A stretch of 64,000 bases of DNA, taken from assembly GCA_026394965.1 (NCBI GenBank), contig JAPLZQ010000103.1:13028-77027 (forward strand), in the 5' to 3' direction. The DNA comes from Candidatus Woesearchaeota archaeon. GTDB lineage: Archaea; Nanobdellota; Nanobdellia; Woesearchaeales; 0-14-0-80-44-23. A program made the position numbers and the translations under genes. The notes beneath the pieces are model-generated. The model saw nothing but the letters and a program-made list of their open reading frames with translations. It had not been told where the DNA came from and did not search any database. Shown one piece after another: positions 26,225 through 48,611 of this stretch. Position 1 is the first letter of the stretch. Every line of letters begins with the position of its first letter.

Positions 26225-26306
26225 TAATGCGCCTCTCTTTGCTCTTATTAAACAAACACTATTGATAAGAAGAGCTATTATAAAAAATTTTTTATTTCTG
26301 CTAAAA

Positions 26307-27460: not shown

Positions 27461-27587
27461 GGCAGTTAATTAAGGGGGTTTAAGTTAAAAATATATCTAA
27501 AAAGAGGGGGATGGATCAACAAGAATGTTTCATTGGTGAAAAAACAAAAAAATTTATAAATTTGGAGGTAGTTAAATCAAAAATCCG

Positions 27588-28145
27588 ATGAATCTGCAAC
27601 AGATAATTCAAAAAAAACACTTAAGGCTTTCTGTATTATTGGCTCTTCTTTCAATAATTGTAATTTTTATGGGGGTATTTATAATAAGGCCGTCAATAAC
27701 AGGATACGCGGTTTACCAAGAGATGGTCAAAATAAATTCTTCTTTTGAAGAATATATACAAAATCTGGATGAACTTCACGAAGAAATACTTTCAAAAAAT
27801 ACAAACTTATCTGTATGCTATAACTTCAATGAACAACTATTTTCTGAATTTGAAAAGTGCAACAATATTAGTCGGGAATACAAAGCAAAACTGGATGTTC
27901 TAAGTTTGAACTGCAGCAAGTTAATGGAGAATAAAAACGCAAAAATAGAGGAGCTGCAATCGCAAATTGATTCAAAAACAAAGCAATATGAGGAATTAAA
28001 AACTGATTATGACCTTTTTGTAAAAAGCGTTGCTGACAACATCTGCTGCAAGACAAAGGTTGACAACCCTAATATAAAATATTACAGAATAGAAAATCAC
28101 AAAGTTCTATGCCTTGAAGAAGGAACCCAGCAGATAAACTGTTAA
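27588..28145 (+). CDS. hypothetical membrane-anchored coiled-coil protein
   Basis: 185 aa with an N-terminal TM helix (LSVLLALLSIIVIFMGVFII), then a coiled-coil and a Cys pair at the C-terminus. Confidence 0.35.
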   Translation: MNLQQIIQKKHLRLSVLLALLSIIVIFMGVFIIRPSITGYAVYQEMVKINSSFEEYIQNLDELHEEILSKNTNLSVCYNFNEQLFSEFEKCNNISREYKAKLDVLSLNCSKLMENKNAKIEELQSQIDSKTKQYEELKTDYDLFVKSVADNICCKTKVDNPNIKYYRIENHKVLCLEEGTQQINC

Positions 28146-28251
28146 AAAAACTAAACCATCTCATTCTGATAGATATCTAAGTAATTTCACTCATAAGATT
28201 ATTTAACAATTAAAAAAGAGAATAGAACATAGAATTAAGAATATTCAAATC

Positions 28252-28392
28252 TTACTCTATGACTGCGCCGCACTTCTTGCAGTACACTTCATTGTCCTTC
28301 CTGACAACTTCTGTGCTTCCGCATTCCGGGCACTTCAGGATTCCCTCGCCGCTCACGCTCTGAAGCGACTTCTCACTCGGGGATAATGCCAT
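28252..28392 (-). CDS. small zinc-ribbon protein (TFB N-terminal ribbon-like)
   Basis: Minus-strand 46 aa MALSPSEKSLQSVSGEGILKCPECGSTEVVRKDNEVYCKKCGAVIE, a CPxCG...CxxCG zinc ribbon. Below the ORF-track size cutoff. Confidence 0.4.
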   Translation of the reverse strand: MALSPSEKSLQSVSGEGILKCPECGSTEVVRKDNEVYCKKCGAVIE

Positions 28393-28581
28393 GCCTAACT
28401 TTAGAATTTTATGATATTTAAATCTTTTGAATTACTCGCAAAAGAAGAAATCTGAATGCCAAAAAGGGCTTTTCAGCCATAAAAGAAAAGCGCGACAAAT
28501 GAATTAAAAAAGACAACGCAACAGGATAGTATAACAGAATAATAAAATAATAAAATAATAAATTAATAAAATAAAAAAAGC

Positions 28582-29322
28582 TTATTTCCTCTTCTTTGCC
28601 TTTTTTACCACATGCTTAACAGTGCTTTTTTCAGTTTTCTTATCCTCGCAGAAAACCATTGCAAATGCAGTAATCGATGTTATCCCCGCAGTCATTGAAT
28701 AAATTGAAGAGGACAGCATTTCAAGGAAACCTGTTGCGCTGTAAAAAATCATGGAAAGAAGCACTGAAATAATGGCGCTGTAAATCCCTGTGAAAACTGA
28801 TGTCAGAAAATACTTTGCTGAAAAAGCCCTCCTGAAAACCTCTTTTATCCTGAATGCTTCCCTTATCTTCCAGTCCTTTGCATATTTCAGCCATGCTGAA
28901 GGCATGACATACACTGCAAGAATGAAGAGCACTGCAAAAGCAGCAGAGAGGGGGACTGGAATTAACTTAACCACTTCCCTTATGATTTCAGGAGTCAATC
29001 CTGATGCGTCAACTACTCCTGCAATGTCAAACAGGTATGAAACCTTTGCAATGAATATCGCTGCTGCAGCTGAAAAAACAGCAAGAGCAGGAATCAGGTA
29101 AATTATGGATATAAAAATGGAGCAAAGCCCCCTTATGAAGAGATTTCCCCAGTCAACCCATTCTGGAAGCCCAAGCTTTTTCTTGAGCGAAAGGTTTCCT
29201 GCGGTAAGAACGTAGCCCGAGACAAAAAGGTTCACAATGGGAATGATTCCGAGAAGAATCCCGATTATCAGATTCCTGAAATCTGAAAAAGGGCGCTTAA
29301 TTGCGCTGATATAATCAACCAT
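28582..29322 (-). CDS. hypothetical multi-pass membrane protein with basic C-terminal tail
   Basis: 246 aa with about 6 TM helices and a C-terminal KHVVKKAKKRK. Confidence 0.45.
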   Translation of the reverse strand: MVDYISAIKRPFSDFRNLIIGILLGIIPIVNLFVSGYVLTAGNLSLKKKLGLPEWVDWGNLFIRGLCSIFISIIYLIPALAVFSAAAAIFIAKVSYLFDIAGVVDASGLTPEIIREVVKLIPVPLSAAFAVLFILAVYVMPSAWLKYAKDWKIREAFRIKEVFRRAFSAKYFLTSVFTGIYSAIISVLLSMIFYSATGFLEMLSSSIYSMTAGITSITAFAMVFCEDKKTEKSTVKHVVKKAKKRK

Positions 29323-29533
29323 TCAAAACCACCTCTTTAATTTTATGACATCCCGAAAACGGACATTCTGATTTCAATCATTTATTGATTAAAAATCTTT
29401 TGATTCTGCGCATCCCAAAGTTTCATCAAACGGGAATATAAGTATTTTTTTAAGTATAAAAATAATAAAATAGAAAAGTATTTAAATAAGCATTAATATA
29501 AGTATATTTGGCCGAATAAAACCGAATCAGAAA

Positions 29534-31102: not shown

Positions 31103-32920
31103 TTGCAGGAAGGCAAAATGGCAGAGAAAGAAAAAGCGGAGAAAAAGCCCGAAGGCAAAATCACCGACTACATTGAGAAAAAGCAGGAAAAGAAAACAGA
31201 GGAGAAAGAGCATAAAAAAGAGATTGAAGAGAGTAAGAATAATGGTTCAGATAATGTAATCGCGTTTGAGCTTGCAAAAAAGCAGCAGGAAATCTCAGTT
31301 GCGGAATTCTTTGAGAAAAACAGGCACCTTCTCGGCTTTGACAACAAGAGGAAGGCACTCCTCACTGCAATAAAAGAGGCAGTGGACAACTCGCTTGACG
31401 CCTGCGAGGAGGCAAGAATACTTCCCGAGCTCCTTGTTGAGATTGTGGAAATGGGGGAGGAAAAATTCAGGGTGTCAGTTGCAGACAACGGACCTGGAAT
31501 AGTTAGAGAGCAGATTCCAAACATATTCGCAAAGCTTCTCTATGGAAGCAAGTTCCACACGCTGAAGCAGGCGAGGGGGCAGCAGGGGATAGGGATATCT
31601 GCTGCAGCGCTCTACGGACAGCTGACAACAGGGAAGCCGATAAGGATAATCTCAAAAATTTCCCCAAAGCATCCTGCATACTACTACGAGCTTCACATTG
31701 ACACGAAAAACAACAAGCCGGAAATCCTGAAGCAGGAAGAGCGGGAATGGGATATTGAGCATGGCACAAGAATAGAAATAGACCTTGAGGCAATTTACCA
31801 GAAGGGCGACCAGTCAGTTGACGAGTATCTCAAGCAGACAGCAATCATAAATCCGCACGCGACAATAACCTACACAAACCCCAAGGCAGAACAGTTCATA
31901 TTCGCAAGGGTGTCAAAAGAGCTTCCTGCTGAAGCAAAGGAGATAAAGCCCCACCCATACGGAGTGGAGCTCGGGCTTCTCCTGAAAATGCTGAAGAGCG
32001 CAGAGGAAAGGACGCTGCAAAGCTTCCTGACAAGCCAATTCTCAAGAGTAGGCGCTGGAACTGCAAAAGAGATATGCGAAAAGGCAGCAATGCTTCCAAA
32101 TTCAAAGCCCCATGAGATAGACCGGAACCAGGGAGAAAAGCTGATTGATGCGATAAGGAACACAAGGATAATAGCACCCTCTCCGGACTGCCTTTCACCT
32201 ATAGGCGCACAGAATCTTGAGAACGGGCTCCGAAAGGAGATTAATGCTGAATTCTACACTTCAACTGCAAGACCGCCATCTGTCTACAGGGGAAACCCGT
32301 TTGTGATAGAATGCGCAATCGCATACGGCGGGCAGATTCCGGGAGACAAGCAGGCGACAATTCTCAGGTTTGCAAACAGGGTTCCCCTGCTTTACCAGCA
32401 GGGAGCCTGCGCAGCAACAAAATCAATAACAGCCACAAACTGGAAATCATACGGGCTATCCCAGAGCAACGGGGCAGTGCCTGTAGGACCATGCGTGATA
32501 GCAATACACCTTGCATCTGTATGGGCTCCGTTTACAAGCGAGGCAAAAGAGGCAATAGCCCACTACCCTGAAATAATCAGGGAGATGAAGCTTGCCCTCC
32601 AGGAATGCGGGAGAGAACTTACAAAATACATACACAAGAAATACAGGGTAAATGATGCGATAAAGAAAAAGTCCTACATTGAGAAATACCTTCCTCACAT
32701 AGCACTAGCGTTAAAAGAGCTTCTCGGGCTCACTGAAACCGAGGAGAAAAAACTCCAGGCGGCAATAAAGGAGCTCCTTGAAAAGACAAGGCAGATTGAA
32801 AGCATTTCAGATGAAGGCTCTGAGGAAGAGGACAACGGAAGGGAGAAATTCGGGATAAAAGGGAATGTTGAGGAAGAGCTTGAGAATGCCGAGGACAGCG
32901 ATGATGAGGGCAGTGAGTAA
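31103..32920 (+). CDS. top6B: DNA topoisomerase VI subunit B (GHKL ATPase)
   Basis: Bergerat-fold motifs ELVDNSLDA-like (EAVDNSLDACEE), VADNGPGI, and GQQGIGISAA. A transducer domain and acidic tail follow. 605 aa. Confidence 0.9.
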   Translation: MQEGKMAEKEKAEKKPEGKITDYIEKKQEKKTEEKEHKKEIEESKNNGSDNVIAFELAKKQQEISVAEFFEKNRHLLGFDNKRKALLTAIKEAVDNSLDACEEARILPELLVEIVEMGEEKFRVSVADNGPGIVREQIPNIFAKLLYGSKFHTLKQARGQQGIGISAAALYGQLTTGKPIRIISKISPKHPAYYYELHIDTKNNKPEILKQEEREWDIEHGTRIEIDLEAIYQKGDQSVDEYLKQTAIINPHATITYTNPKAEQFIFARVSKELPAEAKEIKPHPYGVELGLLLKMLKSAEERTLQSFLTSQFSRVGAGTAKEICEKAAMLPNSKPHEIDRNQGEKLIDAIRNTRIIAPSPDCLSPIGAQNLENGLRKEINAEFYTSTARPPSVYRGNPFVIECAIAYGGQIPGDKQATILRFANRVPLLYQQGACAATKSITATNWKSYGLSQSNGAVPVGPCVIAIHLASVWAPFTSEAKEAIAHYPEIIREMKLALQECGRELTKYIHKKYRVNDAIKKKSYIEKYLPHIALALKELLGLTETEEKKLQAAIKELLEKTRQIESISDEGSEEEDNGREKFGIKGNVEEELENAEDSDDEGSE

Positions 32921-32931
32921 GGAGCGGAAAA

Positions 32932-34017
32932 ATGAAAGATGAAATGATAAAAAGAATAAAGGAGCTCTCAAGGAATCTGTATGAGAGCATAATTCAGCAG
33001 AAGAAGCCCCAGCTTTCAATGCCTGTTCGCTCGCTATCAAACGTGGATTTTGACAAGGCAAAGGGATATTTTGAGATAGGAAATGAGAAGAAGACAAGGA
33101 CTCTTACTGTAAACACATCAAAGACATTCGCTCAGACATTAAGAATGTTGTCGCTCTCAAAAAGCCTTATTGAAACAGATGACATTGCAACAAAGAGAGA
33201 GGCATACTATGTGTCAAAGAACTGGGGCGAGGCAAGGTTCCTTGAGCAGCCGGAATCAGACATGGTAATGGATGACATTGAAGCAATGTTCATGGTTAAT
33301 AGGGAGCAGATAGGGTTCATTCCTGAGGAAAAGGGGGGCGATGTCTCAGGAGAACTTATTGTAGTGGATAAAGACCCCGAAACAGGAAAGGAGATAAAAA
33401 TTGACTGCACCAAGATGGGAACAGGCGCATACTCAATCCCGAGCAGCGTCGAGCACCTGCAGTTCGAGACAACGGCAAATTTCATACTTGCAATAGAGAC
33501 AGCTGGAATGTACCAGAGGCTTGTAAAGCATGCCTATTTCAGGAAATCAAAATCAATACTGATATCGCTTGGGGGAGTCCCGACAAGGGCATGCAGGCGG
33601 TTCATAAGAAGGCTTTCTGATGAAAAAGACATTCCAGTCTATGTGTTCACAGACGGAGACCCATACGGATACCTGAACATCTACAGGACTCTTAAGGTGG
33701 GAAGCGGAAATGCAGCCCACATCAACAAGTTCTTCTGCGTCCCAAAGGCAAAATACATGGGAATCACCCCGGGAGACATAAACGATTACAAGCTTCCAAC
33801 CCATCCCCTCAAGGAAGTGGACATAAAAAGGGTTAAGGACGGATTCAAGAACGACCCGTTTGTCAAGGCATACCCTGAATGGCAGAAGGCCCTAAACCAA
33901 ATGGTTGAGATGAAAAAGAGGGCTGAGCAGCAGGCGCTTGCACAGCACGGGCTCAACTTTGTGATTACTGACTACCTTCCGCAAAAGCTGGAAAACCAGA
34001 AAACATGGCTTCCTTAA
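32932..34017 (+). CDS. top6A: DNA topoisomerase VI subunit A (Spo11-like)
   Basis: Winged-helix with catalytic Tyr region (EAYYVSKNW), toprim acidic motif YVFTDGDPYGY. Immediately downstream of top6B. 361 aa. Confidence 0.9.
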   Translation: MKDEMIKRIKELSRNLYESIIQQKKPQLSMPVRSLSNVDFDKAKGYFEIGNEKKTRTLTVNTSKTFAQTLRMLSLSKSLIETDDIATKREAYYVSKNWGEARFLEQPESDMVMDDIEAMFMVNREQIGFIPEEKGGDVSGELIVVDKDPETGKEIKIDCTKMGTGAYSIPSSVEHLQFETTANFILAIETAGMYQRLVKHAYFRKSKSILISLGGVPTRACRRFIRRLSDEKDIPVYVFTDGDPYGYLNIYRTLKVGSGNAAHINKFFCVPKAKYMGITPGDINDYKLPTHPLKEVDIKRVKDGFKNDPFVKAYPEWQKALNQMVEMKKRAEQQALAQHGLNFVITDYLPQKLENQKTWLP

Positions 34018-34084
34018 AATTTCCTAATAATAATAAAAAAAATTTATAAAGCAGCAAGAAAATAAATTTATAAAGTTTAACGAA

Positions 34085-34531
34085 TTGTACAAAGATATGA
34101 GAAGTTTCAACAACTTGTTTAAGAAAAAAGTTATTGAAGAAAATAAAAACAACAGAGTTATTCCTTCTGGTATCACTTTTAAAATTATAGTAAATCCGTC
34201 GTTAAGTGAGGATCATCAAAAAGCGTTAAGATATGTTATCATCAAAAATTCTGGGTTAGATCAATATTTTAAAAATATTGATGTGACTTTTTATGATAGC
34301 TATAATGGGAATAATGTGAGCAATGATAAACTTAAGGGAAAACAAATGCTGGTTAAAGTTTTTTGCCCAGAACCCATTGTGAGTATAGAAAAAGATAAAG
34401 AAGACGAGTTCTATAAACAGCTAAAATCTAAAGTTACAGAATATATAATAAAAGCTATTCAAAAAAACACTGAAAAAAAATATAAAGCTAATTTAGAAGA
34501 ATTTCTATTTACATACAGATTAGAATTTTAA
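34085..34531 (+). CDS. hypothetical protein encoded in an AT-rich, compositionally atypical segment
   Basis: 148 aa. Strong AAT/TTA/AAA codon bias unlike the flanking genes, and no recognisable motif. Confidence 0.35.
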   Translation: MYKDMRSFNNLFKKKVIEENKNNRVIPSGITFKIIVNPSLSEDHQKALRYVIIKNSGLDQYFKNIDVTFYDSYNGNNVSNDKLKGKQMLVKVFCPEPIVSIEKDKEDEFYKQLKSKVTEYIIKAIQKNTEKKYKANLEEFLFTYRLEF

Positions 34532-34753
34532 ATACTTTATTTCTTAAAAAGTAATCTATAAAATAAAGAGGAGATAAACTAAATTTATTTTTCTGCGAGC
34601 TTGACCAATTCTGCGTAGAATCCCATTGAAGAGAAATACACTGCTGAAATAACAAAGCTGAGCGCGAAGTAAACAAATGAAAGATCAGAGCCTTCATCTG
34701 TTTTTAAAACAGAGGGGTTTTTGAAACACTTTACTCCGCAATTGGCGCATGCA

Positions 34754-34840
34754 GTGATTGAATCAATGTTGGGGCATGCAGCAATTGAATCAATGCTTTT
34801 TGGCATCTGGCCCTTCACTTCAGAAATTGAATCAATGCTT
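34754..34840. repeat. tandem array of three about 27 bp degenerate repeats, each centred on the palindrome ATTGAATCAAT
   Basis: Palindrome cores at 34757-34767, 34784-34794 and 34826-34836. The longer units GCATGCAG(T/C)(G/A)ATTGAATCAATG(C)TT(TTT)GG are repeated. They overlap weak ORFs on both strands (34585-34977 minus, 34721-34924 plus). Confidence 0.5.
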
Positions 34841-35325
34841 TTTGACGCACTGCCTTCCTGCCAAGAAATTCCAAGAGTCATAATTGAAGCAGCAGTGCGT
34901 GGAGAGATTTCATACTGCGGGTAAGTGTTCAGCCAGTCATGCTCTCTGTTTTCATTTCCCCATCTCATTTTTATCACTCGAAAAATTCTTTTAGATTTTT
35001 TCAGATACCCTAACTCCCTCGCTCTGATTTTGCAGGCATAGCCAGATTAAATAGAGAAGGATATTTTAATTTATCGGGAAAAAATAAAAAACGGCTTGGA
35101 AAAGAGAGAATTATCATAAAAATCCGCATAAACTTCAAAGTCCAAAGAATTACTGCATGGACTCGTTTTGAAAATATCCTGCCAATTTAAAAGCTATGAG
35201 GGATTAGTTACCATTATTTGATAGTGAAAAAACCGAAATATTTATAAACCCTTTCTGAATTGTTATCACTGCCAGTCAATAATAAACCGGCAATAATCTC
35301 ATTTAAAAGGATTGGGGGTAATAAC

Positions 35326-36837
35326 ATGTTAGGCATCGGACAGAAGGCGCAGGCAAGTAATTACCAGCAGCAGATAAGGGATATGGTTTCTTACATAAAT
35401 CAGCATTTCATAGCAGAGGCTCCAAAAGACATATACCTCAATGAATCGCAGGAGGGTATAGGCGGGCACACAAAAGGAGCCCTTCTTAAAGAGGCAATAG
35501 AGAGCGCAAAAAGCAAAAAGCCGATTTCAGAAAATATCCTTCCCATCACAACCACAATGCTTGCATTAAACTCTTGCATCGGAAACAACACCCTCATTTC
35601 AGGAGATGTTGGGACAGGAAAGACAAGGCTCGCAAGCGTAATAGGCTCAATGGTTTACCAAATCCCAGTTGAGATTTTTGACTGGAGAAAAATTGTCGGA
35701 AGCCCGGGAGCAACAGTCAATGACATTTATGCAACTCACGACATCGCTGAACTAAACAAGGGAATAGACATGGCATTTCTTTATCTCCCATTCCATATGC
35801 CTTACCTTATCATAGATGAACTCAACAGGTTCTCTGAACTTGAGCAGAACAGGATAAGAGAGGGCGTTGCAAATGATGTGTGGAACTATGCAAACCACTC
35901 ATGGAAGATAGACAAACAGGTTGTTGTATCAGCAATGAACCCCGATGTTTACGGAGGCACATTCTCCCTCAATGAAAATCTTGTGGACAACTACTCAATT
36001 CTCCTTTGGCCGCCAACATACAATCCAATAGCGCACCAGCATCTTGTAGAGCACGCCGATGAGAAGATAAAAGAGGGGCTGGGGCTTGAAGACAAGGTGG
36101 GCGAGTTTTTTGAATTCTACAAATCCCACAAGAACGATGCAAAAGCAATCAAAGATAAGATATCAGATCTTCAGCAGGCAACTGTCCAGGAATATGAAAG
36201 AAGGAAAATCCCGATAATCAAGAACGGATTTGTGTCAGAGATAAAAAAAGAGATTTCGGAAATAAGGTTTGCAGACGAGCCTCTTCTCTTCTTCTATTCA
36301 ACGCTTTCTGAGATATCCCAAAGCACAAAGTTCGGGGAAAACCGGTTTGAGGATCCAAGGTCAGATGACGAGCATGACAAGAGATACCTCTCAACAAAAG
36401 TGCTTAGGGGGCTTGCAGGAAGGTTCATGAAGGACTGGGAAATGATGTCAAAGGGGCTTGCATGGTACCTTGGAAGGGACAGAGTTACAGTTGAGGATGT
36501 GAAAACAGCATTTGTATTCACATCAGCAGCAAGGATAAACCCTGAAGAAAGATTCAAGCAGAAGGTATGGAACAGCCAAAGAAGCCTCCCCATAAGGCAC
36601 GCTATTGCAAAGCAGGTTATTGATGACTCATTCAAAAACTACACTGATTACACAAGCGCAGACAAGTCATTTGAGCATGTCAGAAAGGCAATACTCATGA
36701 TAACTGAGAATGAGCTTAATGCAGAAACAATCTCTGAAGCAAGAAAAGACCTGGAAATGAGCGACCATCCTGTTGCAAGGACAATTGAAGAAGCTCTCCT
36801 TTGCATGCAATATGAAAGCATGCAGAACAGAAAGTAA
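35326..36837 (+). CDS. MoxR-family AAA+ ATPase with a C-terminal extension of about 250 aa
   Basis: Walker A GDVGTGKT, Walker B LIIDELNRF (the MoxR-type DE(I/L)NR), sensor-1 VVSAMNP, and an ENLVDNYS segment in the position of the MoxR LDRF box. The likely start is the ATG at 35326, preceded by GGGGG. The ORF track starts at 35260. Confidence 0.7.
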   Translation: MLGIGQKAQASNYQQQIRDMVSYINQHFIAEAPKDIYLNESQEGIGGHTKGALLKEAIESAKSKKPISENILPITTTMLALNSCIGNNTLISGDVGTGKTRLASVIGSMVYQIPVEIFDWRKIVGSPGATVNDIYATHDIAELNKGIDMAFLYLPFHMPYLIIDELNRFSELEQNRIREGVANDVWNYANHSWKIDKQVVVSAMNPDVYGGTFSLNENLVDNYSILLWPPTYNPIAHQHLVEHADEKIKEGLGLEDKVGEFFEFYKSHKNDAKAIKDKISDLQQATVQEYERRKIPIIKNGFVSEIKKEISEIRFADEPLLFFYSTLSEISQSTKFGENRFEDPRSDDEHDKRYLSTKVLRGLAGRFMKDWEMMSKGLAWYLGRDRVTVEDVKTAFVFTSAARINPEERFKQKVWNSQRSLPIRHAIAKQVIDDSFKNYTDYTSADKSFEHVRKAILMITENELNAETISEARKDLEMSDHPVARTIEEALLCMQYESMQNRK

Positions 36838-36866
36838 GCGAATCACTTGGCTTGAGAATAAAAAAA

Positions 36867-38171
36867 ATGACTCTTTTTGACATGTCTGGAATAGAGAAAA
36901 GGGAAACAAAGGAAAACTCTCACGGATTAGAGGCGCTCCTCAATGCAGGAGACGCATTCTTCAATGAATTCGGGAGGTTATCCTGGAAAGAAATGATTGA
37001 CTTAATGAAAAAAAACAGAAATTATGCCAAAGAGTTCATAAAAGAAAAACTTAATGGGACAGAGTATTCTACAGAAGACATAGAGGACTATGTTATCATA
37101 AAAAGCGCAGAAGGAACAAGGAATTCAAGCTCCCTAAATTCAAATGTTCTTGGTGAATACTCGGGAAAAATTCTCAGCCTTCTCACAGAGGAAAATTCAA
37201 GTAAAGGAAAAAAAACAGTGATAAAAATTGACGGAAAAGGCGGGACTTTTGACCGTCTTTTTTACGGCGCAGAATTCTTTGATGAAGTATACATCTCAAA
37301 CATGAATGGAGAGGGAATATGCTCATCAATGGCGAACGGCAACATCCTTGCCCTAAACAACTGCAACGGGGGTAATACTGCAACATTCATCGGCGCAGGA
37401 AGCAACGGAGGCGTTAAGGCAGCAATACTGAACAATGCAAATAGCACGCACAATCTATTTTACGATGCTGCGTTTATAAACGGGCACATAGGGCTTGCCA
37501 TGCTCAACAACTCAACAGACAGTTACCATATAGAAATGGCCCTTTCTCTGATATACCCGGGAATAGAGCGGCTTGTAATACGAAACAAATTCAATCCCGA
37601 AAAATTCCAATTTGAAGATTTGCCTGTTGAGGATGGAAATGAAAATAAAGATTTCAAATTTTATGCTGATGAATATGCATTTGGAATAGAAAACGATTCA
37701 GAGATAATGGTTGCAAACAACGTCAGAAATAAAAGAGAATATGGCGGGCATCTATTCGGAAGGATGATTGAGCCAAACACTGAACTGCAGGAATTCCTGA
37801 AAAAAAACGGGATTGACAGAATGGCTGAGCTTTCAGACAAAATGGTGGATGCGGACTTAGACACTATTCAGGAAAATGCCAGAATGATTTACCATATTCA
37901 CAACGAAACTGCAACAAAAGAAATGCTCGAAGGAAGAGACAGATATTATCATACAATAAGACTTTTTGAAGAAATTGTTCCTGATGTTCTTGAAGAAATC
38001 CCCAGAAAACCAAAAGATGATTCAAATAATTATCCAAATCAGGAAAAAATCTATGAAAACGCCGGAGAAAAGATACAGAAGAAGGCAAGCAGGTGGATTA
38101 AAAACACATGGTATGACATAAGAGAAATATTTTTCATAAATCAGATAATGGACAAGATAAGGGGCAGATGA
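36867..38171 (+). CDS. paralog 1 of tandem GIEKREKKE-motif / Gly-Asn periodic-repeat family
   Basis: N-terminal MTLFDMSGIEKRETKE. Core KKTVIKIDGKGGTFDRLFYGAEFFDEVYISNMNGEGICSSMANGNILALNNCNGGNTATFIGAGSNGGVKAAILNNANS, then the C-terminal helix ELQEFLKKNGIDRMAELSDKMVDADLDTIQENARMIYHIHNE. The ORF track starts at a TTG at 36852. Confidence 0.6.
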   Translation: MTLFDMSGIEKRETKENSHGLEALLNAGDAFFNEFGRLSWKEMIDLMKKNRNYAKEFIKEKLNGTEYSTEDIEDYVIIKSAEGTRNSSSLNSNVLGEYSGKILSLLTEENSSKGKKTVIKIDGKGGTFDRLFYGAEFFDEVYISNMNGEGICSSMANGNILALNNCNGGNTATFIGAGSNGGVKAAILNNANSTHNLFYDAAFINGHIGLAMLNNSTDSYHIEMALSLIYPGIERLVIRNKFNPEKFQFEDLPVEDGNENKDFKFYADEYAFGIENDSEIMVANNVRNKREYGGHLFGRMIEPNTELQEFLKKNGIDRMAELSDKMVDADLDTIQENARMIYHIHNETATKEMLEGRDRYYHTIRLFEEIVPDVLEEIPRKPKDDSNNYPNQEKIYENAGEKIQKKASRWIKNTWYDIREIFFINQIMDKIRGR

Positions 38172-38186
38172 AATTCGGTGAAAAAA

Positions 38187-39566
38187 ATGGCATTCAGCGA
38201 TCTTACTGGAATAGAGAAAAGGGAGAAAAAGGAAATAATTTCTTCTGGATTAGAGATGCTTCTTCAGGCAGGAGACGCATTTCTAAACAAATTTTCCAGA
38301 CTATCAATTGAGGAACATGTGGATTTGGAAATGAACAACCACAGTTATGCTGAAGATTTTATAAAAGAAAAACTGAGAGGAGTTGAGTATTGCGCTGCAG
38401 ACATAGTGGACTATGTTATCATAAAAAGCAGGGAAAACGCACAGGAGCGCGGATATCTCGAGGAAGAAGATCTTGCCAGATATTCAGGGATAATTCTAAG
38501 CAGGCTTACAGAGAAAAATTCGAGGAAAGGAAAAAAAACAGTAATAAAAATTGACGGAAAAAATGGTACCTTTAACAATCTTTTTCGTGGAGCAGAATTC
38601 TTTGATGAGATATACATCTCCAACATGAACGGGGGATGGCTGTGCTCAGCAATGGCAAACGGCAATATTCTCGTGCTAAACAACTGCAGCAGCAACGGCG
38701 CTGCAGCATTCATAGGAATGGGAATGAACGGCGGAGTCAAGACAGCAATATTGAACAATGTAACCGAACCTTCATATAAATTAAGACAGGCATTTGGATC
38801 AGTCGATAAATCCGATAAATTTTTTAATATTGCAAATTTAGAGGGGCATGTCGGGCTTGCTATGATCAACAATTCGGCAAACGATGAGGTCATGCAGTCT
38901 TATGATATTGAAACGTTGCATTATCATTCAATCACACATTATTCAATAGCAGAACAGCTGGTAATACGCAACTTCCCTTATCAAAAAAACCCATTTAAAG
39001 AATGGCATCTTAAGAGAATAGGCGACTCTGCAAACTGCGGATTGTATTCTGAAAGCGGGGCGGTATTATTTTCTTACAACATATCCCCCTTACCAGTAAT
39101 CGACTGCTCGCAGGTAATTATTGAAAATAATTTCTATAATTTAGGATTATATACTAACCATCAATTCGGAGAAACAACAGACCCAACTGCTGAAATCCAG
39201 GAATTCCTGAGAAAAAACGGGATGGACAGAATCATTGCGCTTGCAGATGAAATGACTGAAGCAGACTTAGACACAATACAGAAAAACGCCAGACAGATTT
39301 ACCGGATTCACGAAGAAACCGCAACACCAAAAATGCTCAAAGGAAGAGAAAACTACTGTTTCTCAATGAGACGCTCCAAAGAAAATATTCCCGATGTTCT
39401 CGAAGAATTCAGTTCAAACATTCAGAATGGTTCAGATTCAGGAAAAATCTACGAAAGCGCTGAAGAAAAAATACAAAAGAAAAGAGACAGATGGATTAAA
39501 AACGCTCAGTATGACATAAAAAAGATGTCTTTCATAAAATGGGCAATAGACAAAATAAGAAGATAA
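38187..39566 (+). CDS. paralog 2 of tandem GIEKREKKE-motif family
   Basis: MAFSDLTGIEKREKKE..., the same core (KKTVIKIDGKNGTFNNLFRGAEFFDEIYISNMNGGWLCSAMANGNILVLNNCSSNGAAAFIGMGMNGGVKTAILNN), and C-terminal EIQEFLRKNGMDRIIALADEMTEADLDTIQKNARQIYRIHEE. About 45% identical to paralog 1. Confidence 0.6.
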   Translation: MAFSDLTGIEKREKKEIISSGLEMLLQAGDAFLNKFSRLSIEEHVDLEMNNHSYAEDFIKEKLRGVEYCAADIVDYVIIKSRENAQERGYLEEEDLARYSGIILSRLTEKNSRKGKKTVIKIDGKNGTFNNLFRGAEFFDEIYISNMNGGWLCSAMANGNILVLNNCSSNGAAAFIGMGMNGGVKTAILNNVTEPSYKLRQAFGSVDKSDKFFNIANLEGHVGLAMINNSANDEVMQSYDIETLHYHSITHYSIAEQLVIRNFPYQKNPFKEWHLKRIGDSANCGLYSESGAVLFSYNISPLPVIDCSQVIIENNFYNLGLYTNHQFGETTDPTAEIQEFLRKNGMDRIIALADEMTEADLDTIQKNARQIYRIHEETATPKMLKGRENYCFSMRRSKENIPDVLEEFSSNIQNGSDSGKIYESAEEKIQKKRDRWIKNAQYDIKKMSFIKWAIDKIRR

Positions 39567-39581
39567 AATTCGGTGAAAAAA

Positions 39582-41453
39582 ATGGCAGAAGACAAAAAGC
39601 AGGGCGCGGAAGACAAAAAGCTTGAGGAAATCATAAAGAAATGCTTTGAGGAGACAAAGGACCGGTATCTCAGACCTCCGATAAGCGGACCTCTGATAGT
39701 TGACTCTGAAATTGAAATGAACGGCTTGGGAACAGCATTTCTGAACTTCCTTGACTTATCCATTGGAATAAATGCCCCTTTTCTTAAAAAAATGGCAGGA
39801 TATGCCAATGGTGATATTGAAAAGATGGCAAAGGGAATTTTCACCCACGAAATCGGGCATTATATGTTTTTTCCCCAGAATGTAAGCCTTTCACTTTACC
39901 TCTCATATGAGGCAGAGGAGAATTTCAAGGAAAACAGCGCAATAATATACGCCCTTTTCGCTGACTATGTCAACAATTCTCTCATCTATTACCAGCAGGT
40001 TGAGGCAGAGAGTTTGAAAGGGCTACTTGCAAGCTCATATCTCGACAAAAAAAACAGGGCAACAAACAGCGCAATGGCCTTAAGCTACGGAAAAAGGATG
40101 AAAGAGGAATTCTCCGTTGACCTAAGCGGCTTTGAAGAGGAAACCATGAAAAAAATAATCAAGGCAGCAGACGAGATTGATTCAGTAACAGTTAGCATGA
40201 GCAGGAACTACAACCTGCAGTATTCCCAACTCCGAAGATTCGGAGAGGCAATACTTCCCCTTCTTAATATTGACAGGCAAAAAATGAAGGAGAATCAGAA
40301 GAATAACTGCGACAAAAATTGCCAAAACAACGGGGGGCAGGGTGAAAACCCTTGCAATTGCCCTTCTGGCGGGGGCTCAAGAATAATAACCAAGGAAGAT
40401 TTTGACAAGCTTCCCGCTGAAGATAAGCAGAAGATAAAGCAGGCAATAAGGGAAATGATAAAGCACATGGACAAGAAGAAATATGAAAAAATAAAGGAGC
40501 ATTTCCTTGGAAAAGAGAGCGCTAAGAAAGACAGGGCTCCTGGAATCGGAACAGGCATAGAAAATGTGGAATCTGCTGAAGATAAAACAACTGAGTACTA
40601 CAAGGAGCTTGCAGCAGAATACGGGATATTCATAAGGCCCAAGAAAACAAGAACCTTATCCTCAACAAAGCAGGTTTTCGGAAAAGAGGACTTCAAGATG
40701 GACAGCCCGCCGATAGGGATAGACACAAGATACTCCGGCGGAAAAATACTTCCGGGGCTTACAAAGAAAATCAGGATAGAGTCAATACCTTACCTAAAAA
40801 ACTCACAGTCGCTCCCTTCTCTCATAATATACAAGGACGCATCAGGAAGCATGCCTAATCCCCAGCAAGAGACATGCTATGCAACCCTTGCCGGAACAAT
40901 ATTCATAATGAGCTATTTTCGGAGCGGATGCAATGTGGGAGTTTCCCTGTTTGACTCGGAAATGACAGACATATTCAGAAGCGAGGATGAGGATGAGCTG
41001 ATAAAGATGATTTGCAGCTACAAGGGCGGCGGAACATCAATTGATTTGGACAGGTTAAAAAAAGACATAGCAGAATCAAAATCAGAGATTCCAATAGACC
41101 TGAAGAAAATAAATGAGGAAGAAATCAGGAAAAACCCGCTTTTCAGGAAATACCTGAACAAAAACGGAAGGATAAGCCTTCAGGAGCTCACAAGCCAGAG
41201 CTATGTTGACCTGATGATAATAACAGACGGCGGAATCATGAATGTTGATGAGCTGATTGACTTCATGAAAAACAACGAGAAATACCGCCCTACAATAATA
41301 CACACCGGCACATTCCAGCTAGATATACCGGGATATGACCAGCAGCACACCTGCTCTTATGGGGGAATAACCGTGTTCAAGGCGGACTCAAAAGAGGACC
41401 TTGTGAGAATATCGCAGGACATAATTGAAAAGAACCTTATTTCAGGCAACTAA
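39582..41453 (+). CDS. von Willebrand factor A (vWA) domain protein with complete MIDAS, fused to an N-terminal HExxH zincin-like region and a Cys-rich linker
   Basis: C-terminal vWA with MIDAS residues all present: DASGS in IIYKDASGSM, the Thr in KGGGTS, and the Asp in LMIITDGG. The N-terminal region contains FTHEIGHYMFF (HExxH). The linker is CDKNCQNNGGQGENPCNCPSGGG. The start ATG at 39582 shares the upstream 22 bp AAATTCGGTGAAAAAAATGGCA with paralog 2. Confidence 0.65.
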   Translation: MAEDKKQGAEDKKLEEIIKKCFEETKDRYLRPPISGPLIVDSEIEMNGLGTAFLNFLDLSIGINAPFLKKMAGYANGDIEKMAKGIFTHEIGHYMFFPQNVSLSLYLSYEAEENFKENSAIIYALFADYVNNSLIYYQQVEAESLKGLLASSYLDKKNRATNSAMALSYGKRMKEEFSVDLSGFEEETMKKIIKAADEIDSVTVSMSRNYNLQYSQLRRFGEAILPLLNIDRQKMKENQKNNCDKNCQNNGGQGENPCNCPSGGGSRIITKEDFDKLPAEDKQKIKQAIREMIKHMDKKKYEKIKEHFLGKESAKKDRAPGIGTGIENVESAEDKTTEYYKELAAEYGIFIRPKKTRTLSSTKQVFGKEDFKMDSPPIGIDTRYSGGKILPGLTKKIRIESIPYLKNSQSLPSLIIYKDASGSMPNPQQETCYATLAGTIFIMSYFRSGCNVGVSLFDSEMTDIFRSEDEDELIKMICSYKGGGTSIDLDRLKKDIAESKSEIPIDLKKINEEEIRKNPLFRKYLNKNGRISLQELTSQSYVDLMIITDGGIMNVDELIDFMKNNEKYRPTIIHTGTFQLDIPGYDQQHTCSYGGITVFKADSKEDLVRISQDIIEKNLISGN

Positions 41454-41482
41454 AAGCAATAGGGGTGATGGGGAAGTGAAAA

Positions 41483-42394
41483 ATGCCAATAGAAGAACTA
41501 TCAAAAGTGGAGAAGAGGGAAACAATAGAGCACAAAAGCACCGCAGAGGAATTCATAAAAAAATGCGGGGAAGCAACAGAAGAGATAAGCGCATTATGCG
41601 CCCAGAAGAAAAACCGCGGTTTTCAAATTGACACAATACGCGACGTATACACCCCGATGGACCGGCTTCTTGAAAAAAGCCTTTCAGAGCTCGACTATTC
41701 GGCAGCGGACATTGAAACATTCATAAGTTCAGAGTACCATCGAGAAATTGCAGACGCAAAAAGATTGCCGCTGGGAGTCTGCACCAGAATAACACTGGAA
41801 ACCCTCACAAAAAAAAACAGGGCAAAAGGAGAAAAAACAGTAATAAAAATTGACGGCAGCTGGAATGAATTTAACTACTTATTTTTCGGCATACAAAACT
41901 TTGACGAGATATACCTCTCAAACATGAAAGGAGAGAGAATACTCTCAGTATCTGATGGAGGCAAGTGCGGAACAGCTGTCCTAAACAATATTGAAGGAAG
42001 CGGTTTGTGCTCATACCTTGATTACAACATTGGTTCACTTGATAATCTAATCTGCAATATGTCTAAGACGTTTTATTTTAAGGATATGCACCGGTCTAAA
42101 CCAAGAAATATTGGCTTTGCCCTGTTAAGCGATTGCATGGTAAATTCTGATGATCAATTCAACTGCTGCTATTTCAGAGAAATTTTGGGAGAAAAAGAAC
42201 CAATTAAGGAAGACAAGGAAAAATATGAGATTATCCTTGAGCTTGCAGCAAAGATGACTGACTCACCAATAGATGAAATAGAAAACCTTAGCCGGCAGAT
42301 AATACAAATCTATCGCTCAGATAAAGAGGATGAGAATATCATAGAGAAAACCAGCAAAACAGGATATGCCCATTTCAAATGGCTTAAGAGATGA
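41483..42394 (+). CDS. paralog 3 of tandem GIEKREKKE-motif family (short, divergent)
   Basis: MPIEELSKVEKRETIEHKS..., core KTVIKIDGSWNEFNYLFFGIQNFDEIYLSNMKGERILSVSDGGKCGTAVLNNIEGSG. The repeat region is truncated. 303 aa. Confidence 0.55.
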   Translation: MPIEELSKVEKRETIEHKSTAEEFIKKCGEATEEISALCAQKKNRGFQIDTIRDVYTPMDRLLEKSLSELDYSAADIETFISSEYHREIADAKRLPLGVCTRITLETLTKKNRAKGEKTVIKIDGSWNEFNYLFFGIQNFDEIYLSNMKGERILSVSDGGKCGTAVLNNIEGSGLCSYLDYNIGSLDNLICNMSKTFYFKDMHRSKPRNIGFALLSDCMVNSDDQFNCCYFREILGEKEPIKEDKEKYEIILELAAKMTDSPIDEIENLSRQIIQIYRSDKEDENIIEKTSKTGYAHFKWLKR

Positions 42395-42429
42395 AAAAAA
42401 TCAAAAAGAAGTGATAAGGAAAACAAAAA

Positions 42430-43323
42430 ATGCCGCTAAACGAGCTTACCGGAATAGAGAAAAGGAATAAAAAGGAAAAGGGAGAGGACAGGACTGAATA
42501 TTTCACAAGAATCAGCAACGGAATAGTCAAAAGCATGCTCAAAGAGTTCGTGAGAATGAGAAAAAGAATCCTTGTCAAGTTCATTGAGGAAACAGATGAG
42601 GAAAGAAAGGAATTTGTCAAAAACGCTATTGGAAGCTTTGAATACAATGAGAGGGATTTGGAAGGGTTGATACAGGCAAAAATTGAAGATGAGAACAAAT
42701 CGCCAATGCTCGGTTACTATACAGGAATTCTTCTGGAAATGCTTACTGAAAGGAACAGAAAAAAGGGAATTGAGACAACTGTCAGGATTGACGGATGCGG
42801 AAGGGACTTTCCCTACCTTTTCATGGGAGCAAGAAACTTTGACAATGTCTACATCTCCAACATAACCGGAGATAAAATACTTTCAAATTCGCTTGATGGA
42901 GGAAGGGGAAAGACAGCGGTTATAAGCGGGCTTAAGGGAGATTCTGCAGCATACTGGATGGCGCGCAAGGGAATGCTTGACCTGCTTGTGATAAATGATT
43001 CTATCGGCGAATTCACTGCAGCAGGAATCGCTGAAGGAGGCTGCATAAAAAGGGTGGTTCTAAGGAACATTACAAGCGACACTGGTTTAACACTTGAATT
43101 CGCGAAAATGAACAACGGCAAAATCCCAGAACTGATTTATGATGCAAAACCGGGAATGTTATCCGGCATAGGCGATTATATCACTATGAAATTCGGGCGC
43201 GTTCCAAGAAGGAGGGGCTCCCTTGAATGCGCAGCCAAGATGAGCGGCGCATCAGTTTATGACATAGAGAAATACGCAAATGAGATAAACAGCCTGTTCA
43301 GAGAAAAAAATGCCACTAAATGA
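42430..43323 (+). CDS. paralog 4 of tandem GIEKREKKE-motif family
   Basis: MPLNELTGIEKRNKKEKGE..., core ETTVRIDGCGRDFPYLFMGARNFDNVYISNITGDKILSNSLDGGRGKTAVISGLKGDSAAYW... 297 aa. Confidence 0.55.
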   Translation: MPLNELTGIEKRNKKEKGEDRTEYFTRISNGIVKSMLKEFVRMRKRILVKFIEETDEERKEFVKNAIGSFEYNERDLEGLIQAKIEDENKSPMLGYYTGILLEMLTERNRKKGIETTVRIDGCGRDFPYLFMGARNFDNVYISNITGDKILSNSLDGGRGKTAVISGLKGDSAAYWMARKGMLDLLVINDSIGEFTAAGIAEGGCIKRVVLRNITSDTGLTLEFAKMNNGKIPELIYDAKPGMLSGIGDYITMKFGRVPRRRGSLECAAKMSGASVYDIEKYANEINSLFREKNATK

Positions 43324-44428
43324 GCTTATTGGAATAGAGAAACGGGAGAAAAATGATAACCCAGAGAGCCAACTTGAAAAGCTGCTTGAAATCGGGGAGG
43401 ATGTTGTAAAAAAATTCGGGAAAAGCGAGCTTGCGGACAGAATTACATATGACAACCGGTTTGAGCCGATTTCAAAATTAAGGGAGAAGATAGAAATCTA
43501 CTGCATGAGAAGCATTGAAAACATTGAATACACAGAAAAGGACATAGAGTCATTTGTGAACGGCAGATTGGGCGTCTCACGGGATACTGGTGAGCAGGTA
43601 ACCATAGGAACTTATTCTGGAATCATTTTGGACATATTAACCATGAAAAACCGGGAAAAGGCAAAAGGAACAAGAATAGCGATTGATGGGAAAGGCGAAG
43701 AGTTTGACTATCTGTTTTCCTGTGCGAAAAACTTTGATGAGGTTTATGTCTCAAACATAAAAGGAGACTACATCTGCACATATGCGGGGGCAGAAGGATA
43801 TGGAAAGATGATAGTCCTGAATGATATTAAAGGCGACTACATTGGAAAATCAATTGCTGCATTGCGCGGAAATGTTGAGATTGCAGTTATAAATCGCGCA
43901 GAAGGATTAGGAACCGGGCATGAAATCGCCTCATACCACGGGAATGCTGGATTAATTATTGTAAACAATGCGATTGGAAGGGAAACATTGATGGACGTGG
44001 CTGTTGAAGGCGGAAGCATAGGGCTCGCTTTGATAAACAAGGCAATTGGCGATTATACTGCCTGGTGCGCAGCTTATGATTCAGGGAGCATTGGGGACCT
44101 CGTAATAACAAACTCAAAAACCAAATCAGAAAAAGGATTTGATATTGATGTAACCAGGATAAAAAACATCCTCCTGAAAATGAATAAATTCAACTTCTCA
44201 AACAAAACTGGCAAAGGAATGCTTATTGGAAACAATGAAGATATGGAAAAGAGTTTCAATGAAGATTACCGAATAAATGAATTATCAGATGCTGTTAAAA
44301 AAATCGTAAAGAAAAAAGAAATTGAAGGGATTATAAAACAGGCAGGAAAGATACAGTCAATATATGAAACCATAAAAGAGAGAGTTGAAGGAGACCTGGC
44401 ATGGATAAAGGAGCATTCGGAGATTTAG
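43310..44428 (+). CDS. paralog 5 of tandem GIEKREKKE-motif family
   Basis: MPLNELIGIEKREKNDNPE. Its first 36 nt are nearly identical to the paralog 4 start. Core TRIAIDGKGEEFDYLFSCAKNFDEVYVSNIKGDYICTYAGAEGYGKMIVLNDIKGDYIGKSIAALRGNVEIAVINRAEGLGTGHEIASYHGNAGLIIVNNAIGRETLMDVAVEGGSIGLALINKAIGDYTAW. 372 aa. Overlaps the paralog 4 stop. Confidence 0.6.
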   Translation: MPLNELIGIEKREKNDNPESQLEKLLEIGEDVVKKFGKSELADRITYDNRFEPISKLREKIEIYCMRSIENIEYTEKDIESFVNGRLGVSRDTGEQVTIGTYSGIILDILTMKNREKAKGTRIAIDGKGEEFDYLFSCAKNFDEVYVSNIKGDYICTYAGAEGYGKMIVLNDIKGDYIGKSIAALRGNVEIAVINRAEGLGTGHEIASYHGNAGLIIVNNAIGRETLMDVAVEGGSIGLALINKAIGDYTAWCAAYDSGSIGDLVITNSKTKSEKGFDIDVTRIKNILLKMNKFNFSNKTGKGMLIGNNEDMEKSFNEDYRINELSDAVKKIVKKKEIEGIIKQAGKIQSIYETIKERVEGDLAWIKEHSEI

Positions 44429-48549: not shown

Positions 48550-48611
48550 ATTTTTATTAAAATCAATTATTTAAAAACATATTTATATTGCAACACTCAT
48601 TTCCTGTGATT

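Follow-up and report, generated by a model that had tools for sequence, protein, structure and literature searches.

Short palindromic units gathered within about 100 nt are typical of operator/iteron arrays and of archaeal ORB origin repeats, for which a non-coding location and a recurring, frame-independent DNA motif are the criteria. Other described systems are recognized by other marks. Intragenic tandem repeats have a period that is a multiple of 3, a constant codon phase and a copy number that differs between orthologues; MITEs are short, non-coding and multiple in copy, with terminal inverted repeats; tRNA-integrated islands have flanking repeats of the tRNA 3' end, an integrase and a foreign composition; and in AT-rich ORFan single-gene "islets" a compositional break coincides with the boundaries of an indel. 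We compared with these systems a 1.3-kb stretch (34030-35330) of a 64-kb DNA sequence, the whole of which is called the window here, from a Woesearchaeota (DPANN) archaeon.

The initial annotation had described this stretch as one AT-rich, foreign segment with palindromes at the edge of an accessory island. All the sequence features that it listed exist where it had placed them, but they do not form a single unit, and the stretch is very likely a mosaic of four independent features lying side by side (Table 1). First, an AT-rich cassette of 0.54 kb, with one gene and its own TATA-like promoter, would have been inserted horizontally between the convergent genes top6A and NTV63_04780. Second, a peptide-coding unit of NTV63_04780 (K-S-I-D-S-I-x-x-C-x-N) appears to have been duplicated twice, in frame. 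Third, the other AT-rich DNA would be a normal promoter-bearing spacer 5' of a MoxR-like operon, and fourth, a mobile double-hairpin element of MITE-like type seems to have left a stray arm of 19 nt in this spacer.

Table 1. Features between top6A and the MoxR-like gene, with positions counted from the first nucleotide of the window.
Feature	Position	Strand	Remark
top6A (DNA topoisomerase VI subunit A)	32932..34017	+	conserved left anchor
AT-rich single-gene cassette, roughly 0.54 kb	34020..34560		absent in sister contigs L086/L087
Two TATA-box-like TTTATAAA motifs	34043-34050, 34067-34074	+	within 20-nt direct repeat
NTV63_04775 (GenBank hypothetical), 144 aa, probably acquired	34097..34531	+	small alpha+beta ferredoxin-like protein
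NTV63_04780, conserved small gene, 127 aa	34585..34968	-	holds the palindromes; GC 41.9%
TA dinucleotide, insertion point in sister contigs	34650..34651		from alignment of L086/L087 with window
In-frame repeat array, three (K)S-I-D-S-I(A/T)AC(P/A)N-type units	34742..34844	-	Ile-Asp-Ser-Ile at residues 45-48, 59-62, 68-71
Divergent intergenic spacer, ordinary	34969..35325		between minus-strand gene and MoxR-like gene
Solo terminal arm (AATTATCATAAAAATCCGC) of MITE-like element	35108..35127	+	exact 15-mer, inverted partner absent
NTV63_04785, MoxR-like AAA+ ATPase, 503 aa	35326..36837	+	first gene of 13.2-kb cluster

The AT-extreme part is confined to about 34020-34560. The GC content of 34001-35000 is 30.8% against about 42% for the window, and that of 34018-34584 is 23.8%. 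The cassette has 24.0% GC compared with 41.7% in the rest of the window and is the lowest 550-nt stretch of the 64 kb. The gene that holds the palindromes has a normal GC content and the AT-extreme stretch lies elsewhere, so the palindrome array is outside the AT-rich, foreign-looking DNA. The spacer 5' of the MoxR-like gene has a GC content of 31.9%, which is typical for intergenic DNA of the window (mean 30.8%, sd 5.5, n=33); it is about 95% conserved in L086/L087, out to 35190, and has no Rfam match at E up to 1. By GC content and codon usage the 144-aa gene was an outlier, and the MoxR block showed native GC and normal CAI values.

The minus-strand gene NTV63_04780 (its GenBank entry is P0080) is called by three independent annotation pipelines. 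Its product has an N-terminal region (MRWGNE..TLGIS), a middle part rich in Cys and a hydrophobic helix at the C-terminus; the orthologue P0002 shares 48% identity along the whole length, with start and stop conserved. In L081-L083 the orthologue directly follows prs on the same strand, 6 nt apart, and L001 carries a weak homologue that is convergent to top6A as in the window. A helix is predicted at residues 94-126 of the C-terminus, for which alone the otherwise poor structural model (pLDDT 47.5) is usable, and this conserved small protein is probably tail-anchored. It is almost certainly wrong to take as the real gene the plus-strand 67-aa ORF (34721-34924) with its IESML repeats, or to regard the DNA as non-coding and the minus-strand ORF as spurious. 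The plus frame is open in the window and partly open in L081, but the minus-strand product is conserved past both ends of the plus ORF (MRWGNE..DWLNTYP; DLSFVYF..SSMGFY.ELV), and the conserved start and stop, the neighbouring prs and the agreement of the pipelines all argue for the minus strand. Differences by codon position in the minus frame are 28/18/39; its position 2 is the most conserved (18 vs 28 differences), and the plus frame would invert this order. Because the wobble positions are common to both frames, that test alone is insufficient against the plus ORF.

The palindrome ATTGAATCAAT, of 5+1+5 structure with an unpaired centre, has exactly three copies in the 64 kb, at 34757, 34784 and 34826. 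There are 82 5-N-5 palindromes in the window where about 62 are expected, so a single copy is unremarkable and the triplication alone is non-random. Read in the same codon phase, each copy gives ATT GAT TCA AT[T/C], and the distances between them, 27 and 42 nt, are divisible by 3. Tandem Repeats Finder reported two 27-nt units at 34742-34795 with 88% matches, and the third copy stands 42 nt on. The orthologue P0002 from L081 has one unit (SKSLESIVSCANC), and the homologues of L001 and L003 also have one unit each, so that period, phase and differing copy number are those of a coding tandem repeat. Folding over the palindromes is nothing unusual on either strand (z -0.03 and +0.41), which removes a structured RNA from the candidates, and Rfam gave no match over the region at the gathering threshold or at E up to 1. 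To judge from codon phase and orthologue copy number, the three palindromes are in-frame coding duplications and very probably not an operator array. The unit was presumably duplicated by slippage or unequal recombination, and the repeats would lengthen a poorly structured linker, for which no protein binding is required. As ATT GAT TCA ATT happens to be a 5+1+5 palindrome, the duplication yielded three identical "palindromes".

An operator array for a dimeric DNA-binding protein, or a replication/partition site, had been proposed initially. Such an operator, iteron or partition array, which would regulate the MoxR operon or mark a replication/partition locus, is very improbable. Three identical palindromes do lie inside 80 nt, about 500 nt from the start of the MoxR-like gene, and regulatory sites can overlap coding DNA; but all three sites fall within the conserved coding sequence 34585-34968 in a single codon phase, their 27- and 42-nt spacings are not helically phased, and the orthologues have one, non-identical unit. 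Nor does the motif recur as a frame-independent element in the 64 kb: the search for it beyond the array gave no further exact copy and no enrichment, with 12 one-mismatch matches against 5.3 expected, of which 6 are the three sites themselves on both strands. Pfam scans of the neighbouring proteins showed no HTH, RHH, ParB or Orc1 domain, and a replication origin was rejected because an adjacent Orc1/Cdc6 gene and a turn of the GC skew are both absent.

Besides the in-frame repeats, the stretch contains the sequence ATCATAAAAATCCGC, a partial copy of which had been noticed near 35110-35125; it is present as an exact 15-mer at 35113-35127. There are 5 exact copies in the window, and 16 matches if up to 3 mismatches are allowed, where 3.7 are expected; 0 of 100 shuffles reached this number. 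ATCATAAAAATCCGC is an arm of a double-hairpin, MITE-like element, the other arm being GCGGATTTTTAGGAT. Full hairpin copies lie at 18175-18294 and 26305-26560 (the latter nested) and a partial copy at 50160-50207; the MITE-like copies form strong hairpins (z -5.5 to -11), while the solo arm at 35108-35127 has a local fold of z = -0.06. The element is thus short and non-coding, with terminal inverted repeats and multiple copies. A distant locus (L055) has the same arms with a different core. Since a second hairpin module stands outside the conserved arms, the true ends of the element are uncertain. The sister contigs L086/L087 carry a 137-139-nt double-hairpin, MITE-like insert (z = -11) at the TA dinucleotide 34650-34651. 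It replaces the part of the minus-strand gene that encodes the C-terminal tail, and the protein P0001 diverges past ...ALSFV. A 2-bp duplication of TA or AT is compatible with this insert, the alignment being ambiguous. Because a gene is disrupted in the sister contigs, the element is mobile in this Woesearchaeota population. No transposase domain was found among the roughly 35 window proteins scanned, and the hairpin element had no match in viral collections. A literature search for MITEs of Woesearchaeota returned only papers on arthropod mites.

The AT-extreme cassette is of another kind. The ORF at 34085-34531 (148 aa) is real, with ATG 34097 as the likely start of a 144-aa protein (NTV63_04775), and coding-type substitution patterns are seen among its homologues. 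It has 26% GC and a GC3 of 23.5%, the lowest among 63 window ORFs. Homology to L086/L087 ends at 34019 and is picked up again at about 34561, so the compositional break coincides with the boundaries of the indel; in these contigs a 36-nt spacer separates the stop of top6A from the stop of the convergent gene, and in the outgroup L001 a 12-nt spacer without the cassette occupies the same site. L086 and L087 are independent assemblies (ENA and JGI), short metagenome contigs of about 0.9 kb whose flanking DNA is 95.6% and 95.1% identical to the window. Neither a protein-alignment query nor a degenerate DNA pattern yielded further strains of the population from metagenome contigs, and exact-protein look-ups with Top6A and the 127-aa protein returned nothing.

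Homologues of NTV63_04775 occur in unrelated contexts (L084, L085, L088/L091, L092/L093 and L094), for example on an archaeal contig with RadA (L093) and on a contig of bacterial appearance (L091), which has GRDB and a sigma-70-like promoter. The homologue is 6-19 GC points under its host contig in 7 of 8 contexts, and in the eighth (L094, a contig of 27.6% GC) it equals the host. Genomes of about 27% GC appear to be the native setting of this family, which looks foreign in the others. Horizontal acquisition of the gene, proposed in the initial annotation from its codon usage, is well supported by composition and distribution: it is the top compositional outlier, is missing in L086, L087 and L001, and has scattered homologues that are AT-richer than their hosts. 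Conversely, the gene could be ancestral at this site and deleted in the lineage of L086/L087, with its low GC reflecting a constraint of function or expression, which we regard as quite unlikely. Presence and absence alone give no direction, and AT-rich codons are favoured by the high content of K, N and I in the protein; but GC3 is about 23% compared with about 50% in the neighbours, a signal of synonymous sites and not an amino-acid effect, and the offset between gene and host in unrelated contigs is gone only in the 27.6%-GC host. Moreover, the outgroup L001 lacks the gene too, and no homologue is found among the 80 top6A loci.

Following acquisition, the cassette gene may have been expressed from its own promoter, as the second TTTATAAA motif is centred about 27 nt upstream of ATG 34097; this putative function follows from textbook archaeal promoter geometry. 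A scan for bacterial-type promoters and terminators is uninformative for an archaeon. As for its entry, the site shows no target-site duplication or recombination signature. An imperfect direct repeat of 26 nt, with copies at 34046 and 34563, is the sole candidate; it could have arisen by chance in AT-rich DNA and was rejected as a target duplication, its copies being just 77% identical and neither of them closer to the empty site. An IS200-like or IS200/IS605 element (HUH Y1 transposase) was discarded because the HUH motif is absent and the protein does not qualify as TnpA, for which that motif, a catalytic Tyr and a Pfam match to Y1_Tnp are diagnostic, and an integron cassette because no attC-like inverted repeat lies downstream of the ORF. 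The fold of NTV63_04775 is a generic ferredoxin-like, small alpha+beta domain. Neither small protein (144 or 127 aa) had a match in PHROGs, PADLOC, NCBIfam or Pfam; the best E-value in a sequence-profile search of the PDB was 0.9, a fold search of BFVD gave TM-scores of 0.5 or less, and the 144-aa family had no match in viral collections or, by tblastn, in plasmids and phages. A bolder reading, which we consider doubtful, is that the family is a promiscuous single-gene cassette that stays AT-rich across distant hosts and lands in minimal convergent spacers without a recognisable recombinase, repeat or vector. Its proposed hosts are DPANN archaea, other archaea and apparently bacteria. If true, it would imply an undescribed route of transfer and insertion, or a selfish function of the ferredoxin-like protein.

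To the left of the cassette, top6A encodes the Pfam domains TP6A_N, Topo_VI_alpha and Toprim (E down to 3.8e-58), and 80 related top6A loci were collected, the best of them in Woesearchaeota MAGs with 81-85% amino acid identity. To the right begins the MoxR block, which is locus-variable among relatives, compositionally native and not bounded by the tRNA-Arg repeat. Its first gene, NTV63_04785, has weak Pfam matches to AAA_3 and AAA_lid_2, and homologues with 41-58% identity stand in different genomic contexts in other Woesearchaeota. The core cluster is 46-58% identical there and therefore looks lineage-native, though relocated. It had been suggested that the whole 34-49.5 kb is one accessory island, with the AT-rich DNA at one edge and the tRNA-Arg direct repeat at the other. 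That it is a single island integrated at tRNA-Arg, with these as its left and right ends, is unlikely, although the part that concerns variability was partly borne out. As anticipated, the HAD homologue comes immediately after top6A in L004 and L005, and tRNA-Arg(TCT) after that. In L001 and L081 both flanks are kept, and the place of the 13.2-kb block is taken by 1-3.6 kb of nucleotide-metabolism genes, namely prs, joined in L001 by GMP synthase and a phosphoribosyltransferase; and the block occurs within 10 kb in 0 of 80 top6A loci. These four relatives are distant, with Top6A at most 85% identical, and at such a distance synteny is lost as fast upstream of top6B.

The pairing with the tRNA-Arg repeat was not supported. 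What lies between the two copies of the tRNA 3' end, at 49340 and 49452, is no more than 112 nt of inserted DNA downstream of the tRNA, and precisely this insert is missing from L081; no tRNA fragment was found near 34-35 kb. The block has 40.8% GC against 42.5% and 40.9% in its flanks, with CAI values of 0.67-0.77 like its neighbours. Pfam scans of all its proteins gave only weak AAA+ and HAD matches and revealed no integrase or transposase domain, and neither PADLOC (run on 8 of these proteins) nor NCBIfam (on 4) showed an integrase or recombinase. Besides, the proposed island would include NTV63_04780, whose presence at this position is ancestral, and nine tandem paralogues make up much of the size of the MoxR cluster.

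The main value of these results is corrective, as what looked like a regulatory or replication array very probably arose when part of a real small gene was duplicated in frame, and they guard against mis-annotation of short palindrome clusters in the poorly annotated DPANN genomes. Smaller results are a clean strain-level case of what is probably a single-gene acquisition in a Woesearchaeote, direct evidence for the mobility of a MITE-like hairpin element in a Woesearchaeota population, and a small conserved alpha+beta family that is AT-richer than its host contig in 7 of the 8 contexts examined. Current concepts are unchanged by any of these.

In comparison with known systems, the palindromes resemble operator/iteron arrays and ORB repeats in their tight clustering, but they sit in a conserved coding sequence at a fixed phase, their orthologues have no array, and no DNA-binding, Orc1/Cdc6 or partition gene is adjacent. 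As in a tRNA-integrated island, the lineage-variable MoxR block adjoins tRNA-Arg(TCT), whose 3' end is repeated directly; however, the two copies enclose only 112 nt, on the side of the tRNA away from the block, and the block has native composition and no integrase. The cassette shares with AT-rich ORFan islets the sharp compositional break, strain-level presence and absence, promoter-like elements of its own and homologues scattered over unrelated genomes. It differs from them in being inserted in a 12-36-nt spacer of convergent genes, without integrase, transposase, attC-like site or clear target duplication, and without a match in phage, plasmid or viral collections. The hairpin element differs from archaeal and bacterial MITEs in that no cognate transposase was found among the window proteins scanned and that the arms are conserved while the cores differ between distant Woesearchaeota; it is like them in being non-coding and about 120-140 nt long, with inverted terminal arms of 15 nt and a strong hairpin fold, in occurring as multiple and nested copies and as solo ends, and in showing an insertion polymorphism between close strains and a possible TA duplication. 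Finally, compared with the intragenic tandem repeats in linkers of small membrane or surface proteins, the array of NTV63_04780 has no more than three imperfect units, its period is not uniform (27 and 42 nt), and its copy number is constant between the two strains compared. As in those repeats, its units are multiples of three in constant phase, copy number differs between orthologues (3 vs 1), and the repeats lie in a predicted unstructured segment before a hydrophobic C-terminal helix.

An archaeon of the Woesearchaeota (DPANN) is the source of the window, whose best matches among the 80 related loci are Woesearchaeota MAGs, with Top6A identities of 81-85%. The three genes of interest are NTV63_04775, NTV63_04780 and NTV63_04785 in GenBank, on an 84-kb MAG contig. 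The features named in the initial annotation are all present at their sites: the ORF at 34085-34531, three exact copies of the palindrome ATTGAATCAAT (34757, 34784 and 34826, with zero others in the window), the tandem units (two of 27 nt, with the third copy following after another 42 nt) and the ATCATAAAAATCCGC element near 35110 (an exact copy at 35113). The AT-richness described there is real but not uniform, as GC varies segment by segment. Segment 34018-34584 has 23.8% GC and holds the most AT-rich 550-nt stretch of the 64 kb; its ORF has the lowest values of 63 ORFs (GC 26%, GC3 23.5%). The palindrome-bearing gene has 41.9% GC, while the spacer at 34969-35325 (31.9%) is indistinguishable from 33 other intergenic spacers (30.8 ± 5.5%), and the MoxR block has 40.8% versus 42.5% and 40.9% in its flanks.

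Positions of the Top6B and Top6A genes, the palindrome-bearing gene and copies of the hairpin element in the window
Feature	Position	Strand	Remarks
Top6B	31103-32920		Pfam-confirmed
Top6A	32932-34017		Pfam-confirmed
NTV63_04780	34585-34968	-	127 aa; full-length orthologue P0002 at 48% identity
Element, full copy	18175-18294		DNA fold z -7.1
Element, full copy	26305-26560		further hairpins nested inside
Element, partial copy	50160-50207		
Element, solo 19-nt arm	35108-35127		no partner; z -0.06

The AT-rich part amounts to a strain-specific cassette of one gene. The 144-aa ORF is missing from two metagenome contigs of independent assembly, L086 (ENA) and L087 (JGI), which share 95.6% identity with window 35190-34649 and 95.1% with the 3' end of top6A. 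They cease to match the window at 34019 and match again from about 34561, and only 36 nt separate the top6A stop from the stop of the convergent gene. In the outgroup L001 a spacer of just 12 nt separates top6A from the homologue of the convergent gene, which makes gain of the cassette in the window lineage the parsimonious reading. Horizontal acquisition of the small ORF, as the initial annotation suggested, is well supported by these three cassette-free loci, by the lowest GC and GC3 and by homologues in unrelated neighbourhoods. An imperfect 26-nt direct repeat flanking the ORF was considered as an insertion trace and was not convincing.

As evidence that the 144-aa ORF is a real gene, 11 homologues share 55-73% identity with it, a full-library profile search gave 33 cluster representatives, and the substitutions relative to the homologue in L088 number 32, 13 and 46 at the three codon positions, 34 of the codon changes being synonymous. 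Structure prediction gave a confident model (pLDDT 85) of a plain beta-alpha-beta-beta-alpha-beta ferredoxin-like domain, to which TPR repeats are fused in some relatives. Two TATA-box-like TTTATAAA boxes lie upstream, the second centred about 27 nt before the ATG at 34097, which by standard promoter geometry fits a leaderless archaeal transcript. The neighbourhoods of the homologues are unrelated to one another: for instance, the L093 contig is archaeal and encodes RadA, and the L091 contig is bacterial-looking and carries GRDB and a sigma-70-like promoter. The family lies 6-19 GC points under its host contig in 7 of 8 contexts, and it equals host GC only in a contig of 27.6% GC. The drop is sharp and confined to the gene at L091 3985-4407, in L088 and at L093 1045-1464 (hosts of 45-51% GC, one bacterial-looking), and is absent at the L094 homologue (723-1103; contig 27.6% GC). 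This pattern suggests that the donor pool is very AT-rich and that the gene passed between distant lineages. That the family forms a promiscuous AT-rich single-gene cassette, with an insertion route unaccounted for, seems unlikely.

The palindrome array is coding sequence, and it does not mark an edge of the MoxR block. NTV63_04780 and its orthologue P0002 share a conserved start (MKWGNE) and stop; in L081-L083 prs lies 6 nt before the orthologue and on its strand, and weaker homologues occur in L001 and L003, the former convergent to top6A as in the window. Each palindrome reads ATT GAT TCA AT(T/C), i.e. Ile-Asp-Ser-Ile (residues 45-48, 59-62 and 68-71), and all three are in one codon phase with spacings of 27 and 42 nt. 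Since the orthologues have one unit each (SKSLESIVSCANC), the array arose from two in-frame duplications of a K-S-I-D-S-I-x-x-C-x-N unit. Palindromes of the 5+1+5 kind are common in the window (82 versus about 62 expected), so that only the triplication needs explaining, and ATTGAATCAAT is not enriched elsewhere within it. The repeats sit in a segment without confident structure, before a long hydrophobic C-terminal helix (a poor model, pLDDT 47.5). Neither strand of the palindrome DNA gave a fold signal (z -0.03 and +0.41), and the region has no Rfam match. An operator or partition array, as first proposed, is very improbable, given these in-phase codons of a conserved gene. An overlapping plus-strand ORF of 67 aa has its wobble positions in common with the minus-strand frame, so that counts by codon position are by themselves insufficient to exclude it as the real gene; however, the minus-strand product is conserved past this ORF at both ends and the minus frame varies least at position 2. 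That either the plus-strand ORF is the real gene or the region is non-coding is extremely improbable.

ATCATAAAAATCCGC forms the arm of a hairpin element that is mobile. In full copies the 15-nt arms ATCATAAAAATCCGC and GCGGATTTTTAGGAT pair around an inner GC stem, and a second hairpin comes next. A copy of 137-139 nt (z -11; L086 546-684) sits in L086 and L087 at the TA corresponding to window 34650-34651, within NTV63_04780, whose hydrophobic tail is replaced; a 2-bp duplication is possible, the alignment being ambiguous. The distant Woesearchaeote L055 has the same arms around a different core (1-100 and 3802-3816). Because of the hairpin copies, the insertion in the sister contigs and the L055 arms, the element is MITE-like and recently active. 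We found no transposase for the ATCATAAAAATCCGC/GCGGATTTTTAGGAT element among the roughly 35 window proteins scanned.

The initial annotation also took the whole 34-49.5 kb for an accessory island, with the tRNA-Arg direct repeat at its other end. The comparison with relatives that it proposed came out partly positive: in L004 and L005 top6A is indeed directly followed by a HAD homologue and tRNA-Arg(TCT). L001 and L081 keep the NTV63_04780 homologue as one flank and tRNA-Arg, tRNA-Cys and LigD_N as the other, and lack the MoxR block: between the flanks L081 has prs only, L001 has prs, GMP synthase and a phosphoribosyltransferase, and the window has 13.2 kb. In these relatives, whose stretches L001 5707-9462 and L081 6717-7724 were compared with window 34969-49226, prs (PRPP synthetase) is tightly linked to the NTV63_04780 homologue; none of the three genes occurs at this locus or anywhere else in the 64-kb window. 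Against a classical island, the block is native in composition and CAI and has no Pfam-recognisable integrase or transposase domain, and its four-gene core (MoxR-like ATPase, paralogue, 605-626-aa protein, paralogue) recurs with 46-58% identity in a different context in another Woesearchaeote; synteny upstream of top6B is equally poor in these distant relatives. The tRNA repeat spans only a 112-nt insert and has no partner near 34-35 kb. We therefore rejected a tRNA-integrated island, which is quite improbable, and an accessory block between top6A and tRNA-Arg keeps slight support. The best description of the MoxR block is an arrangement specific to the lineage, at a locus prone to rearrangement; the left limit lies within 34969-35325 and the right one before HAD (48588).

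Nine tandem paralogues make up most of the length of the block. The locus (35326-48549) encodes a divergent AAA+ ATPase, a 626-aa protein and these paralogues (297-462 aa, mutual identity 27-50%); its proteins have no credible Pfam or PADLOC match except weak AAA+ ones on the ATPase, and NCBIfam is also empty for the first four. Another Woesearchaeote (L090) has a minimal four-gene version adjoining primase, Cas4-like and Rpb7 genes, and a version with 10 or more genes adjoins the protein P0057.

Besides, the 16-nt 3' end of tRNA-Arg(TCT), AATCCCCCTGGACTCA, recurs 112 nt downstream (49340 and 49452; window 49340-49468). The intervening 112 nt are AT-rich, and exactly these are missing in L081; probably a small integration at the tRNA left them behind. 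A second low-GC patch contains a 185-aa ORF (27588-28145; GC 31.5%, GC3 32%) with weak coiled-coil-like matches only, in 2 kb (27500-29500) of 33-36% GC, which may be another acquired gene.

In conclusion, acquisition of the small ORF stands and an accessory locus remains weakly supported, while the operator or partition array and the pairing with the tRNA repeat are dropped. The components of the region, which are an acquired ORFan cassette, a coding tandem repeat and a MITE-like element, all belong to kinds already known.
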